Positions 23,396-25,991 of a stretch of DNA of 64,000 nt are shown here, piece after piece. Position numbers and translations under genes: made by a program. Origin of the DNA: a virus (Duplodnaviria; Caudoviricetes); IMG/VR virus record IMGVR_UViG_3300026116_000035; one strand, given 5' to 3'. Position 1 is the stretch's first letter. Each line of letters begins with the position of its first letter. The notes below the pieces were generated by a model. The model saw only the letters and a program-made list of their open reading frames with translations. It ran no database searches and was not told where the DNA came from.

Positions 23396-23755
23396 ATGGA
23401 TATTAAAGATTTAATTTTTTATATAAATAAATTTAAAGCCGAATGCGAAAAGCTTAAACCTATAAATGATGATAAAATTTCTATATTTCTTTGTGAGAAA
23501 GATTTTGAAGAATTTATAAAGTAAATTTTCCGGAAAAAGTATCAATCTATAATTACAGCCACAGGTTCATCTGGTGAATACATGGGAAAATTATTTATAA
23601 TAAATGGATATGATTATATAGTTCAACCTTATAATCCAGAAGATCCAAATGATTTTTTAAATGTAAATGAAGTTTTTTATTACATGAATGGACATTTTGG
23701 AGAAGACACTGTTTATGCTGAAAATGAAAGAATAATACAAAATATTATAGATTAA
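23396..23755 (+). pseudogene. Interrupted member of the tagged small-ORF family (in-frame TAA at 23522-23524)
   Basis: Manual translation gives MDIKDLIFYINKFK...EEFIK*IFRKKY...YAENERIIQNIID*. Both halves are in one frame, and both ends match the downstream paralogs. Confidence 0.8.
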
Positions 23756-23832
23756 ATTTTATAAATGCCGAATTAAAATATGATTTCATAATTTTCGACA
23801 TAGACATCGTTCTTTCTTCTTTCATTATAAGA

Positions 23833-24213
23833 ATGTTATTTGAGGATTTAAAATTTTATATAGAAAAATTTAAATTTGAGCAAGAGTCAAAAAACGAATA
23901 TAATATTGTCACTGAAATACGTGTAATATTAAATATTATAGATTTTAAAGAAATTTATAATAATATTTTAAATAATGATATGAGTGAAATATTATCACTT
24001 CATACTGAAAATGGTATTATAAAATATACGTTAGAAAATTATATTTTATGTTCTTATTATTTTGAAGATAAAAATTGTGAAAAATCTTCTAATAAAATAG
24101 CTCATATAATATTAAATATTAATAATTCTGATGTTAATTTTTCTTATACTACTTCTAAAAAAGAAATTATTTATTCTGCAAATGAAAGAATAATACAAAA
24201 TATTATAGATTAA
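23833..24213 (+). CDS. Tagged small ORF (paralog family, ends NERIIQNIID)
   Basis: Shared N-terminal motif FEDL.FYIEKFK and C-terminal tag. Confidence 0.8.
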   Translation: MLFEDLKFYIEKFKFEQESKNEYNIVTEIRVILNIIDFKEIYNNILNNDMSEILSLHTENGIIKYTLENYILCSYYFEDKNCEKSSNKIAHIILNINNSDVNFSYTTSKKEIIYSANERIIQNIID

Positions 24214-24216
24214 AAT

Positions 24217-24603
24217 ATGCAATTTGAAGATTTAATATATTATGTGGAAAAATTTAAGTTTCAACAAAAACTAGAGCATGGATATTATATTGATAATAAT
24301 GTAGAAATTATATTAAATACTGCAGATTTTCAAGTAATTCTTGTTGATCAGTTAAATGAGACTGATAATGGATTTACTATTATCCATAATGATAATGGTA
24401 TTTTAAAATACGATTTACATAATTATACTATATGTTGTTACAGTGATAATATTAAAAATATTAATAAAGAAATTTTATTAAATAGTGCTTTGATTATTTT
24501 GAATATTAAATGTATATTAGATGAAAATTATAGTTATCCTATTCATGTAGAAGAAATTATTTATTCACCAAATGAAAGAATTATACAAAACATTATAGAG
24601 TAA
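24217..24603 (+). CDS. Tagged small ORF (paralog family, ends NERIIQNIIE)
   Basis: Shared N-terminal motif FEDL.YYVEKFK and C-terminal tag. Confidence 0.8.
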   Translation: MQFEDLIYYVEKFKFQQKLEHGYYIDNNVEIILNTADFQVILVDQLNETDNGFTIIHNDNGILKYDLHNYTICCYSDNIKNINKEILLNSALIILNIKCILDENYSYPIHVEEIIYSPNERIIQNIIE

Positions 24604-24610
24604 ATATTAA

Positions 24611-24961
24611 ATGTTTAATTCCTGGATAAATATTTTAAATTTTTTAGAAAAAACAAATATTTTAGGTATTAATTTAAATGATTATTTTAATTACCATAAA
24701 GATAATTTTTTAAATGAAATAGATTTTGCTGAGAATATAATTCCCAGTGAGTTTTCTAATAAAATATTTGAAATTATTTTTGTAAATTCAAGTTCATTTA
24801 TATTAAATTTTTTCCTTATCAAAAATATAACAAATCGTTGGGATATGTATAATTTAATAATTAAAGCGTATTATAGATTTAAAATGAATTCTGATAAATT
24901 ATTTGAAGAACATTTAAATAATGTAATAAATGAAAATATAATTGAGAATATAATAAATTAA
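24611..24961 (+). CDS. Tagged small ORF (ends NENIIENIIN)
   Basis: Body looks unrelated to its neighbours; C-terminal tag present. Confidence 0.7.
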   Translation: MFNSWINILNFLEKTNILGINLNDYFNYHKDNFLNEIDFAENIIPSEFSNKIFEIIFVNSSSFILNFFLIKNITNRWDMYNLIIKAYYRFKMNSDKLFEEHLNNVINENIIENIIN

Positions 24962-24962
24962 A

Positions 24963-25364
24963 ATGGAAATAAATATTAAAATAATTCTTATTGAAGTTTT
25001 AGAATTAATTGAAAAGCAAATTAAAAATTATGAATTTCTTTATTATTTTAATGTAAATTATTTCTCCTTACCAAATGAATTAAATAACTTATTAAACTCA
25101 ACATCTGATGAATATATGATTAAATATCATAATTCTATTGGTAGAGTAATTAGAAACTGTTATCTTTGTACTAAAGATGGTTCACTTCCTATATTGTATA
25201 ATTATTTTTTGGAAAATAATATATCTCATCCAGATGATATGAGTGATTTTATTTTGAGAATGTTTTGGCATATAAAACATAATAATCTATCTTACATTGA
25301 TGATATTGAAACATTAACTAATAAATTGTTCAAAGAAAATATAATTAAAAATATAATTGAATGA
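24963..25364 (+). CDS. Tagged small ORF (ends KENIIKNIIE)
   Basis: Body looks unrelated to its neighbours; C-terminal tag present. Confidence 0.75.
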   Translation: MEINIKIILIEVLELIEKQIKNYEFLYYFNVNYFSLPNELNNLLNSTSDEYMIKYHNSIGRVIRNCYLCTKDGSLPILYNYFLENNISHPDDMSDFILRMFWHIKHNNLSYIDDIETLTNKLFKENIIKNIIE

Positions 25365-25651
25365 CTAATATAAGAAAATTAATTAAAGAATTAAATAATA
25401 AATATAATCATAATTTAAAATGTATAGACGAGATTAAGATTATAAAATCTGGTTACATTATAGTTAGATTATCATGCAAAAAATGTAATTGGAATAATTA
25501 TATTTATTTAGGTGATGTTGATTATACTTTTGATAAAGAATACAATTTTACCAAGATTAAAAAAATAGAATGTCCAGAATACATAGAATATGCTTATGAT
25601 TATGATATTTTAACTTGTGATGAGCAAATAATAAAAAATATAATAGAATAA
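25361..25651 (+). CDS. Tagged small ORF with CxxC (ends DEQIIKNIIE)
   Basis: Possible Zn ribbon (C..., CKKC, C, C); C-terminal tag; ATGA overlap with the previous ORF. Confidence 0.75.
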   Translation: MTNIRKLIKELNNKYNHNLKCIDEIKIIKSGYIIVRLSCKKCNWNNYIYLGDVDYTFDKEYNFTKIKKIECPEYIEYAYDYDILTCDEQIIKNIIE

Positions 25652-25653
25652 AT

Positions 25654-25938
25654 ATGATTAAATATGCTGATATTAAATATTATATAGATAAATATAAAAA
25701 TGAATGTTATAATAAAGGCCCAATTACATCAATTCATTTATCATCAGATATATATTTAAATTTATGTTCAGAATTAAATATTACAGATAGTTCTTATTTT
25801 ATTTATGATGAGTATAAATTTAAATTAATGTGGCAAATGTATGAAAATTACATAATATTTTTTAGTTCGTACCCTATGGGTATAGGGTACGATGTTTTAA
25901 GTGAAGAAGAAAGAATTATTAAAGATATAATAGAATAA
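25654..25938 (+). CDS. Tagged small ORF (paralog family, ends EERIIKDIIE)
   Basis: N-terminus YADIKYYIDKYK matches the family; C-terminal tag present. Confidence 0.75.
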   Translation: MIKYADIKYYIDKYKNECYNKGPITSIHLSSDIYLNLCSELNITDSSYFIYDEYKFKLMWQMYENYIIFFSSYPMGIGYDVLSEEERIIKDIIE

Positions 25939-25958
25939 TAATTAAATTTAATATTCTG

Positions 25959-25991
25959 AAACCTGTAAGTAGCAATATTTACAGGTTTTTT
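25959..25991 (+). terminator. Rho-independent terminator closing the tagged-ORF operon
   Basis: Stem aaacctgtaagta / tatttacaggttt, GCAA (GNRA) loop, T run. Confidence 0.85.

Follow-up and report, generated by a model that had tools for sequence, protein, structure and literature searches.

A stretch of 64,000 nucleotides (the window) from an uncultured ~390-kb soil phage carries seven adjacent small ORFs on the plus strand (23582–25938) that end in one C-terminal pattern, E-x-I-I-x-N/D-I-I-D/E/N-stop in the ORF translations. Judging from the conservation of this tag at the chain end, we propose, with a probability of about one half, that it is a docking handle whose free C-terminus is read by one putative common partner. 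The seven ORFs would then form one local array of lineage-wide small accessory proteins sharing only the C-terminal module; the terminal helix would plug into one pocket of the common reader through its four-Ile face and its free end, and the diversified bodies would be interchangeable binding or effector modules delivered to it. The initial annotation knew of no described system with this tag, and none emerged here: no family or publication on it was found in family and literature searches, the latter returning nothing relevant on the tag strings or on DUF6794.

Gene content and body classes of the array

The array lies between a conserved virion-module gene and a gene encoding an HExxH (zincin-like) protein.

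22392–23288, plus strand: conserved virion-module gene, 298 aa; upstream border of the slot
23396–23524, plus strand: A1, 42 aa as a separate gene in the source assembly (ENA ERZ27252106, 390,274 bp)
23525–23755 (first ATG 23582), plus strand: A2, C-terminal half of gene A, tag ENERIIQNIID
23833–24213, plus strand: B, 126 aa, tagged, paralogue of C
24217–24603, plus strand: C, 128 aa, tagged, paralogue of B
24611–24961, plus strand: D, 116 aa, tagged, orphan body, possibly a remote DUF6794 relative
24963–25364, plus strand: E, 133 aa, tagged, DUF6794 body (Pfam PF20594)
25361–25651, plus strand: F, 96 aa, tagged, His/Cys zinc type, ATGA overlap with E
25654–25938, plus strand: G, 94 aa, tagged, short member of the A/B/C family
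25958–25989, plus strand: intrinsic-terminator-like hairpin of 14 pairs followed by a T run, closing the array
26037–26516, plus strand: HExxH (zincin-like) protein, 159 aa; downstream border of the slot

Several features described in the initial annotation were seen directly, namely the tight coupling of the ORFs (spacings of 1–7 nt and the one ATGA overlap), the extreme AT richness of the array (18% GC vs. ~30% in the flanks), the single closing terminator and the seven C-termini, which read as claimed: ENERIIQNIID, ANERIIQNIID, PNERIIQNIIE, INENIIENIIN, FKENIIKNIIE, CDEQIIKNIIE and EEERIIKDIIE. The array genes have no Shine–Dalgarno sites of their own, and the virion genes do; promoter scans and k-mer enrichment in the AT-rich window DNA yielded nothing informative. 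A and B are preceded by a common 15-nt motif, which shows no enrichment in the window and may be a duplication remnant.

Gene A is interrupted. A1 and A2 lie in one frame, parted by a single TAA at 23522–23524, and jointly represent one 124-codon paralogue of B and C. A1, the N-terminal half, resembles the N-termini of B, C and G and carries the motif (F/Y)xD(L/I)x(F/Y)Y(I/V)xK(F/Y)K, which had been assigned to four of the seven ORFs; the motif is indeed present, but A's copy is borne by A1 rather than by the first tagged ORF, A2. B and C are 44% identical across 117 residues and remain similar without their last 13 residues, i.e., the tag and its cap (phmmer E 3e-19). G was said to resemble them only at the N-terminus, with a divergent middle, but in fact aligns with both over its full length, save for an internal deletion of ~25 residues.

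Residues 39–103 of E match PF20594 with an E-value of 2e-11 and 44.1 bits (gathering cut-off 27.1), and its AF2 model (mean pLDDT 83) is all-alpha with eight helices, the tag forming the end of helix 111–132. D matched nothing in Pfam or PHROG; its alignment with DUF6794 by hhalign has a probability of 25% over 43 columns, and D may be a remote relative of E. F carries His, CxxC and Cys(−11), the ligands found in the zinc microproteins that prevail among tagged proteins, and its alignment with the G002 zinc-microprotein profile (G002 is introduced below) is limited to the last 17 residues. Word-index homologue searches with E and F matched only the queries themselves, and fold searches with two confident models gave no PDB match. 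The protein Atlas models of B and D are of low confidence.

The sequences thus point to three body classes in the array: the A/B/C/G paralogues, the DUF6794 type (E and possibly D) and the His/Cys zinc type (F). Of the three bodies initially called unrelated, E and F do differ from A/B/C/G, but D may belong with E, which gives three classes rather than four. Simple paralogue decay, i.e., one ancestral gene of which only the C-terminal helix is still recognisable, would be in keeping with the kinship of A, B, C and G (D and E may be paralogues too) and with the presence of CxxC in 66% of tagged proteins. However, the A/B/C/G profile aligns with the DUF6794 profile with a probability of only 0.1% and with the zinc-microprotein profile over the last 15 columns only. 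Between classes, the profiles align over the tag alone, and by this comparison the seven ORFs are not one paralogous family, contrary to the case of seven full-length homologues that the initial annotation had named as refuting its proposal. Moreover, the DUF6794 domain of E has mostly untagged relatives (the tag is absent in 63 of 67 homologue representatives and carried by only 3), and elsewhere the tag is borne by membrane proteins, beta-sheet zinc proteins and DUF4116 repeat bodies as long as 439 aa, all of which makes paralogue decay barely credible.

The tag peptide and its register with the stop codon

A degenerate DNA pattern comprising the tag and stop gave seven matches in 64 kb, all in the array, and none in 100 dinucleotide-preserving shuffles; II-x-[ND]-II was absent elsewhere in the six-frame translation of the window. 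Ile makes up 15–18% of the tagged ORFs, yet the chance of a tag per ORF is still 1e-6 to 5e-6, and residue shuffles of these ORFs yielded the tag once in 140,000. Two complete tag-bearing relatives of 435 and 459 kb (G001 and G002) served for comparison. The strict pattern matched 65 times in G001 and 64 times in G002 (the reversed control pattern, 0), and the number of tagged ORFs was 91–99 and 66–81, respectively, depending on the regex used. The module consists of a cap, L-T/S-x-D/E-E, followed by [I/M]-I-[K/R/Q]-[D/N/E]-I-I-[E/K/Q]-COOH, with a conserved part of 7–13 residues.

In 169 of the 177 open-frame cases in the two relatives, a single residue separates the core from the stop: G001 has 99 such cores vs. 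3 internal ones, and G002 has 70, with 2 internal and 3 directly at the stop. Three tag-minus genomes have no terminal core and 0–3 internal ones. Where the G002 family has insertions, they follow the last zinc ligand and precede the tag, with none behind it. The tag is modelled as a C-terminal helix both in a beta-sheet zinc microprotein (pLDDT 86) and in the all-alpha E (pLDDT 83). The helical hydrophobic moment of the G001-type consensus is 0.31, and that of the three window tags is 0.5–0.7. The zinc-binding cysteines, together with the positive-inside pattern of one tagged membrane protein, suggest that the tag is cytoplasmic.

C-terminal degrons are likewise read from the free end, e.g., ssrA by ClpX, or the substrates of tail-specific proteases, and a turnover signal, either a degron of this kind or a protection from C-terminal proteolysis by the host, through which one protease would set lifetimes, would fit the strict register and would account, as a common clearance signal, for one tag on unrelated proteins. 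However, the tag ends in Glu, Lys or Gln, whereas known bacterial C-terminal degrons end in non-polar residues, and seven near-invariant residues exceed the need of a generic degron in phages whose shared virion proteins are only 42–67% identical. A role in turnover is thus improbable.

The tag uses all codons for Ile, Lys, Asp, Glu and Asn at near-body frequencies, and the free synonymous variation at every position shows that selection acts on the peptide. The DNA repeat described under the tag was found again: A and B have the same ~35 nt at their ends, and C differs by 3 mismatches. This identity, as well as the location of arrays in variable hot spots, would suit the earlier proposal that payload cassettes are swapped by recombination anchored in the conserved 3′ end. 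However, long DNA identity is confined to the recent paralogues A, B and C; outside them the tag is written in many codon combinations, the tag regions of D–G are 67–81% identical over 27–51 nt, which is too low for homologous exchange, and no recombinase recurs beside the arrays. The anchor proposal is accordingly given very little credence.

An effect at the level of translation deserves slightly more, though it too is very unlikely as the main explanation. The nascent peptide could pause termination and aid re-initiation, or the tag codons could supply the ribosome-binding region of the next gene. Besides the exact register to the stop codon and the close spacing of array genes without Shine–Dalgarno sites of their own, this is favoured by the stop codons after the tag (TGA in 61%, with ATGA overlaps), by a release-factor-like protein encoded in both G001 and G002, and by the enrichment of AAG at Lys(−5) (40% vs. 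15% in bodies), which in G001-type tags places AAGGA 9 nt before the next start. These nucleotide features suggest that part of the constraint on the tag may be translational. However, AAGGA is absent from the window tags, the tag also occurs on singletons and on the last genes of arrays (G, for instance, is followed by the terminator), and Ile is kept while its three codons vary, showing that an RNA signal cannot account for the core. The strict stop register is, for its part, equally expected for a peptide acting while on the ribosome, which weighs against the docking handle.

Distribution among relatives and the insertion slot

A regex search beyond the window, as the initial annotation had suggested, showed that the tag recurs lineage-wide, in G001, in G002 and in at least 114 metagenome stretches, many with multiple matches. 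The tagged class makes up ~15% of the genes (about one in six or seven) in these 390–460 kb phages, and 185 tagged proteins fell into 103 BLAST clusters. Their bodies (median protein size 82–88 aa) include DUF4116 solenoid repeats of up to 439 aa, membrane proteins, zinc beta-microproteins and small beta proteins, and the only Pfam families among them are DUF4116 (11 proteins) and DUF6794 (1 protein). Matches to RLIP76 were dismissed as artefacts of the repeats underlying DUF4116. Prokaryote genomes totalling 596 Gb contained no tagged ORFs, only six lone chance matches to the pattern. GenBank phages included no close relative, the only distant matches coming from Bacillus phage G (tail sheath and baseplate), in which the tag was not found.

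Ten related records are without tagged arrays (one lone pattern match in G004); three are at least 91% complete and seven are partial at 49–71%. In the three tag-minus genomes that were read whole, none of the 185 tagged proteins has a homologue, and the tag-minus G004, one of these, is about as near to the window phage as G001. Tag-minus relatives nevertheless retain close orthologues of the compared virion-module genes (sheath, baseplate and the 298-aa gene). On this comparative evidence, the tag appears to behave as one unit, gained or lost together and specific to this lineage.

Both borders of the slot are conserved virion-module genes; the family search matched neither, and the neck-gene block of the initial annotation is at most a candidate assignment. 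Orthologues of the 298-aa gene are 52–55% identical in G001 and G002 and occur at 36 IMG/VR loci; those of the HExxH protein are 49–57% identical in the two genomes and have no adjoining tagged array, which on sequence grounds places this protein outside the tag system. The slot between the borders varies from 15 bp to 3.6 kb across 29 relatives, none of which has a tagged gene in it, and there are no tagged genes within the virion modules of G001 or G002. The slot is thus a hot spot empty of tagged genes in 29 relatives, suggesting that the position of the array in the virion module is incidental. The array is probably a recent lineage-specific insertion into this hot spot, as its low GC content and missing Shine–Dalgarno sites would suggest. 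It is probably evolving both by duplication in place, as A, B, C and G indicate, and by decay, as in the gene A interrupted by a stop codon. Among the RNA datasets listed, none carried the window array or a G001 array. DNA of the window array was listed in a rhizosphere run, probably its source, and, as a small share, in a soil run.

The initial annotation took the tag for a docking signal that either loads payloads into the virion or recruits them to one partner. A separable peptide module on unrelated bodies fits recruitment to one partner, but loading is not supported by the position of the array. If the tag bound the capsid interior, scaffold or portal, payloads could be packed and injected with the DNA, as in T4, where hypervariable internal-protein cassettes share one targeting peptide. 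Small proteins or elongated solenoids could pass the tail tube, the window array does lie inside the virion module, and the major capsid protein, which is better conserved in these phages than any other protein (82.5% between G001 and G002), would suit a near-invariant tag. However, the same slot in 29 relatives and the virion modules of G001 and G002 are free of tagged genes, tag-minus relatives keep the compared virion-module genes and yet have no tagged gene, membrane proteins and ~100 species per genome would fit poorly in a capsid, and the array genes lack the Shine–Dalgarno sites of virion genes. The G001 capsid gene, from a clade with at least 1735 capsid clusters, is at 298.6–299.6 kb, and the tagged genes are at 115–220 kb and 340–433 kb, with one at 19 kb. 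Virion loading is therefore unlikely. A predicted complex between a zinc microprotein and the major capsid protein, both of G002, scored 0.06 (mark 0.32), which adds weight to neither side, and a search with a T4-type prohead protease model gave no match but was uninformative, the control also matching nowhere.

Candidate readers and comparison with known systems

For the docking handle, the reader could be a phage or a host protein, and a hub in the cytoplasm seems to us likelier than the capsid. More tentatively, and with rather less than even confidence, the free C-terminal Ile-rich helix may be an address label by which one receptor gathers ~100 fast-diversifying binders onto one machine, which might be a protease or chaperone, a structure of a cytoskeleton or compartment, or the virion during its assembly. 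Such a system, gained or lost as a unit, would be a phage counterpart of the adaptor families of eukaryotic viruses or of PTS1-type sorting.

No untagged family recurs within 2.5 kb of the arrays in ~70 contigs, and no peptide-binding domain was recognisable in the 43 untagged genes restricted to tag-bearing genomes. Three candidate readers were set aside: DnaJ, which has tagged genes on its flanks in G001 only, G002 showing no such arrangement; a MoxR-like AAA+ protein, which lies within an array in G001 only and has a tblastn homologue in at least one tag-minus genome; and a radical-SAM gene, which is specific to tag-bearing genomes but lies away from tagged genes in G001 and, in G002, has some in its neighbourhood but none directly adjoining. 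An array of RiPP precursors in which the tag is a follower peptide was also rejected, as no maturase gene recurs beside tagged genes in ~70 contigs (the radical-SAM gene is not adjoining) and the tag is also found on proteins of 200–439 aa and on membrane proteins.

A separate reader would be superfluous if the Ile-rich helices of tagged proteins bundled together into hetero-oligomers or a single body. Self-association of this kind is consistent with the failure to find a reader gene adjoining arrays or restricted to tag-bearing genomes, an all-or-none distribution would be natural for a tag that matters only among tagged proteins, and the H-H-P-P-H-H-P pattern resembles the heptads of helical bundles. 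However, a stable coiled coil needs more than one heptad, and a bundle needs no one-residue register, which is nevertheless kept in 169 of 177 cases, so that self-association appears improbable. The docking handle has its own difficulties: a helix of 7–9 residues is short for a stable interface, and ~100 clients are unusually many for one pocket.

The tagged class accounts for one gene in six or seven, and no function is assigned to any of its members. Should the tag prove to be an address label, the identity of the hub would open ~100 dark-matter genes per genome to function, the tag would provide a portable seven-residue label for sending proteins to that hub, and phages would be seen to build, like large eukaryotic viruses, big adaptor families around one docking motif. 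Tag-bearing and tag-free sister genomes within one lineage offer an unusually clean natural contrast.

Several known systems resemble the tag in part. The capsid-targeting sequence (CTS) of T4 is an acidic amphipathic peptide of ~10 residues on the internal proteins IPI–III and Alt, N-terminal and removed by the prohead protease. Like the tag, it is a short peptide shared by otherwise unrelated small phage proteins encoded in hypervariable cassettes. However, the CTS is found on a handful of genes adjoining head genes, whereas the tag is C-terminal (seven of seven window ORFs), lies one residue from the chain end, and is present on ~100 genes per genome, mostly far from head genes. The cargo-loading peptide of encapsulins is also C-terminal, ~10 residues long and attached to unrelated cargo, and binds a pocket on a shell protein of the HK97 fold. 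In contrast to the tag, which is an Ile-rich helix, it is an extended peptide rich in Gly, Ser and Leu, and its cargo genes lie beside the shell gene; by the G001 coordinates, tagged arrays are far from the capsid gene, and relatives with the same virion module lack every tagged gene.

The ankyrin-PRANC (F-box-like) proteins of poxviruses form large families with variable bodies, including solenoids, and one C-terminal docking module, as the tagged proteins would. PRANC, however, has a Pfam model, folds into a domain of ~60 residues and docks on host Skp1, whereas the tag comprises 7–13 residues in a bacteriophage, and no Pfam match to the tag module or to a PRANC-like ~60-residue domain was found among 108 tagged proteins. 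The XB tether of SspB on ClpX, HbYX on proteasome rings, PTS1 on Pex5 and the SSB tail similarly work only at the chain end, in a pocket of a hub. Their sequences are unrelated to the tag, and, with the exception of PTS1 cargo, each is restricted to one or a few protein families, as opposed to ~15% of genes. By analogy, the poxvirus ankyrin-PRANC proteins and the SspB tether appear to be the closest parallels for a docking handle.

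The tagged array of the window

The window belongs to a rhizosphere-metagenome contig of 390,274 bp, and the run of tagged genes within it occupies a 2.7-kb island with 18% GC vs. ~30% GC in the surrounding DNA. The island holds eight ORFs, all on the + strand, and is delimited by the following features:

22392-23288, conserved 298-aa gene, upstream border of the island
23396-23524, + strand, A1, ORF with the N-terminal motif
25958-25989, strong terminator-like hairpin closing the array
26037-26516, gene of an HExxH protein, downstream border of the island

Seven of these ORFs had initially been annotated as ending in E-x-I-I-x-N/D-I-I-D/E/N before the stop codon (the tag), and all seven do so. 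Searched as a degenerate DNA pattern, the tag with its stop codon matched these seven ORFs and no others in the 64 kb, with 0 matches in 100 shuffles of the window, and II-x-[ND]-II is absent outside the seven tags in every reading frame of the window. The chance of a tag per ORF was calculated to be 1e-6 to 5e-6, despite an Ile content of 15-18%.

A single TAA at 23522-23524 separates A1 from A2, the first tagged ORF, cutting the first array gene into ORFs of 42 aa and 57 aa. Since this one stop codon interrupts a common frame, A1 and A2 together form gene A, a 124-codon paralogue of B and C that may be either a pseudogene or a gene in two pieces. Identity between B and C is 44%, their N-terminus is also present in A1, and G is alignable to both end to end, save one internal deletion. 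E scores above the curated Pfam cut-off for DUF6794 and is predicted to fold into eight helices (pLDDT 83), the tag being the end of helix 111-132, while D resembles the DUF6794 profile only weakly (probability 25%), and His, CxxC and Cys(-11) of F follow the zinc-microprotein ligand pattern. Homology of the seven over their full length, which the initial annotation had named as the finding that would undo its proposal, was not found; between body classes, profile-profile alignment covers the last 15-17 residues only. As judged by these alignments, the seven ORFs are not one family. An exhaustive HMMER search with E returned 67 homologue representatives, ending in unrelated sequence (63), the tag (3) or a truncated tag (1). 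That 63 of the 67 DUF6794 homologue representatives are untagged shows that the tag is a module added onto a pre-existing domain.

The array genes are without Shine-Dalgarno sites, which the adjacent virion genes have. A perfect 11-bp hairpin (25867-25892) lies within the coding region of G, the last array gene, ~90 nt before the terminator.

Spread of the tag and of the tagged bodies

The tag module is confined to a single huge-phage lineage from soil. A tag-pattern scan of IMG/VR led to two complete huge phages, G001 (435 kb) and G002 (459 kb), which are syntenic with the window phage and show 40-67% protein identity to it over the virion module. A looser tag pattern gave 65 matches in G001 and 64 in G002, and the reversed control pattern gave 0; tagged ORFs number about 91-99 and 66-81, i.e., ~1/7 and 1/10 of all ORFs, respectively. 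At least 114 more stretches with the tag, many with arrays, were found in JGI metagenomes. No tag was found in the AT-rich Bacillus phage G (497 kb), and 596 Gb of prokaryote genomes contained no tagged ORFs, with six lone pattern matches only. IS605/TnpB-like ORFs adjoin tagged arrays on two metagenome contigs (L094:1585-2865 and L112:1962-3230).

Ten related records are without tagged arrays, one of them (G004) having a lone pattern match, and three of the ten are near-complete: G004 (409 kb), G006 (392 kb) and G007 (481 kb). None of these three contains a homologue of any of 185 tagged proteins, though the sheath and baseplate trees place G004 in one group with G001, G002 and the window phage; the tagged complement thus behaves as one unit, present or absent. 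ORFs of at least 50 aa number 512-595 in the three genomes (380 of the 481 kb of G007 being covered) vs. 718-776 in the tag-bearing ones, a gap of approximately the size of the tagged complement.

The 185 tagged proteins fall into 103 BLAST clusters, and the only Pfam families among them are DUF6794 and DUF4116, the latter as solenoid repeats in 11 proteins of up to 439 aa. CxxC is present in 66% of the proteins and at least three Cys in 77%; further bodies are multi-pass membrane proteins and small beta-rich proteins. A cytoplasmic location of the tag is suggested by the zinc sites and, in one membrane protein, by positive residues immediately preceding it.

Anatomy and possible role of the tag

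Across 312 unique tagged proteins, the consensus is L(-13) T/S(-12) C(-11) D/E/N(-10) E(-9) x I/M(-7) I(-6) K/R(-5) D/N/E(-4) I(-3) I(-2) E/K/Q(-1), the last residue being nearly always E, K or Q in G001 and G002. At conserved positions every synonymous codon is in use, at frequencies close to those of the gene bodies, and selection therefore acts at the peptide rather than the DNA level. The DNA repeat noted initially was confirmed (~35 nt identical at the ends of A and B, 3 mismatches in C), but its proposed role as a recombination anchor is contradicted by the codon data and the profile data, as is paralogue decay from one ancestor.

Exactly one residue separates the six-residue core from the stop in 99 cases in G001 and 70 in G002; the core lies directly at the stop in 3 further G002 cases, and internally 3 and 2 times, respectively; the three tag-free relatives have 0-3 internal cores each, so the internal cases are background. 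In a zinc family of G002 (32 members), insertions occur after the last zinc ligand but before the tag, and none lies beyond it. In AF2 models, the tag forms the C-terminal helix of a zinc microprotein with four strands (pLDDT 86) and of protein E, which is all-alpha. The tag is a helical, separable module: a peptide under protein-level selection that is fixed to the chain end of unrelated small accessory proteins. It would serve as a docking handle for a common partner, with the diversified bodies as interchangeable modules by analogy with adaptor families; a rival explanation is a turnover signal. In a conserved family of ~150 aa (G001 126115-126561; G002 415549-416004; L169:1431-1889, on a further stretch), a variant tag has a hydrophobic end (e.g., MIKDLIL or VIEDIIV) in place of I-I-E; orthologues can thus differ by drift of the tag.

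A nascent-peptide or translational-coupling role is another rival, and the nucleotide sequence of the tags bears on it. The K-D codons of G001-type tags frequently spell AAGGA, located 9 nt upstream of an overlapping ATGA start; AAG makes up 40% of Lys codons in tags vs. 15% in bodies, and TGA 61% of the stops of tagged genes. This overlay is absent from the window's own tags. Dual coding is seen in tag codons of G001 and G002, e.g., at G001 134606-134635.

Virion loading via the tag is a third rival. The array had been described as embedded in the neck block. The slot between the 298-aa gene and the HExxH gene is a hot spot for insertions in general: its length ranges from 15 bp to 3.6 kb in 29 IMG/VR relatives, with varied ORFs but no tagged genes, and it holds one or two small untagged ORFs in G001 and G002; this position is therefore uninformative on function. 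The window's virion module is riddled with inserted genes (16436-17386, 20003-20350, 20744-20968, 17383-19107 and 21342-22355), comprising a GIY-YIG/NUMOD3 homing endonuclease, an HNH endonuclease, a cold-shock protein, a methyltransferase and class-V aminotransferase pair, and a PA14-domain protein with a lipoprotein-like N-terminus. A 960-aa virion-module protein (26520-29402) contains an intein (Hint + LAGLIDADG, ~residues 345-775) absent from its orthologues in G001 (553 aa) and G002 (534 aa).

Candidate partners and known systems

No untagged family recurs within 2.5 kb of the arrays on ~70 contigs. G001 and G002 have 47 genes in common that none of the three tag-free genomes contains. 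Of these, 43 are untagged; the set includes a radical-SAM enzyme, a PARP-like protein, an NYN nuclease and many unknowns, with no obvious peptide-binding domain. The radical-SAM gene was rejected as the partner for its lack of linkage to arrays, and DnaJ because tagged genes flank it in G001 but not in G002. The partner may be found among the restricted unknowns, among conserved phage proteins or in the host. Alternatively, the tagged proteins would assemble with one another, tag to tag.

Other genes were observed in these genomes. G001 encodes a TubZ-like tubulin (218299-219666) and a MoxR-like AAA+ ATPase (420921-422234) inside a tagged array; the closest tagged gene to the ATPase of G002 is ~8 kb off. 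A 191-aa release-factor-like protein (G001 343013-343588), adjoining a full type-I DnaJ, retains the tail of the PCRF domain and the RF-1 domain (Pfam), with most of the codon-reading domain missing. Its reciprocal best match in G002 (412280-412672, 130 aa) is 60% identical over 120 residues. The release-factor-like protein may be a ribosome-rescue factor.

The tag is covered by no Pfam, PHROG or PDB match, and no relevant paper in the literature collection searched contains the tag strings. It is not a member of any of the nearest concepts, which are the T4 capsid targeting sequence, encapsulin cargo peptides, PRANC-type adaptor families and free-C-terminus docking motifs.
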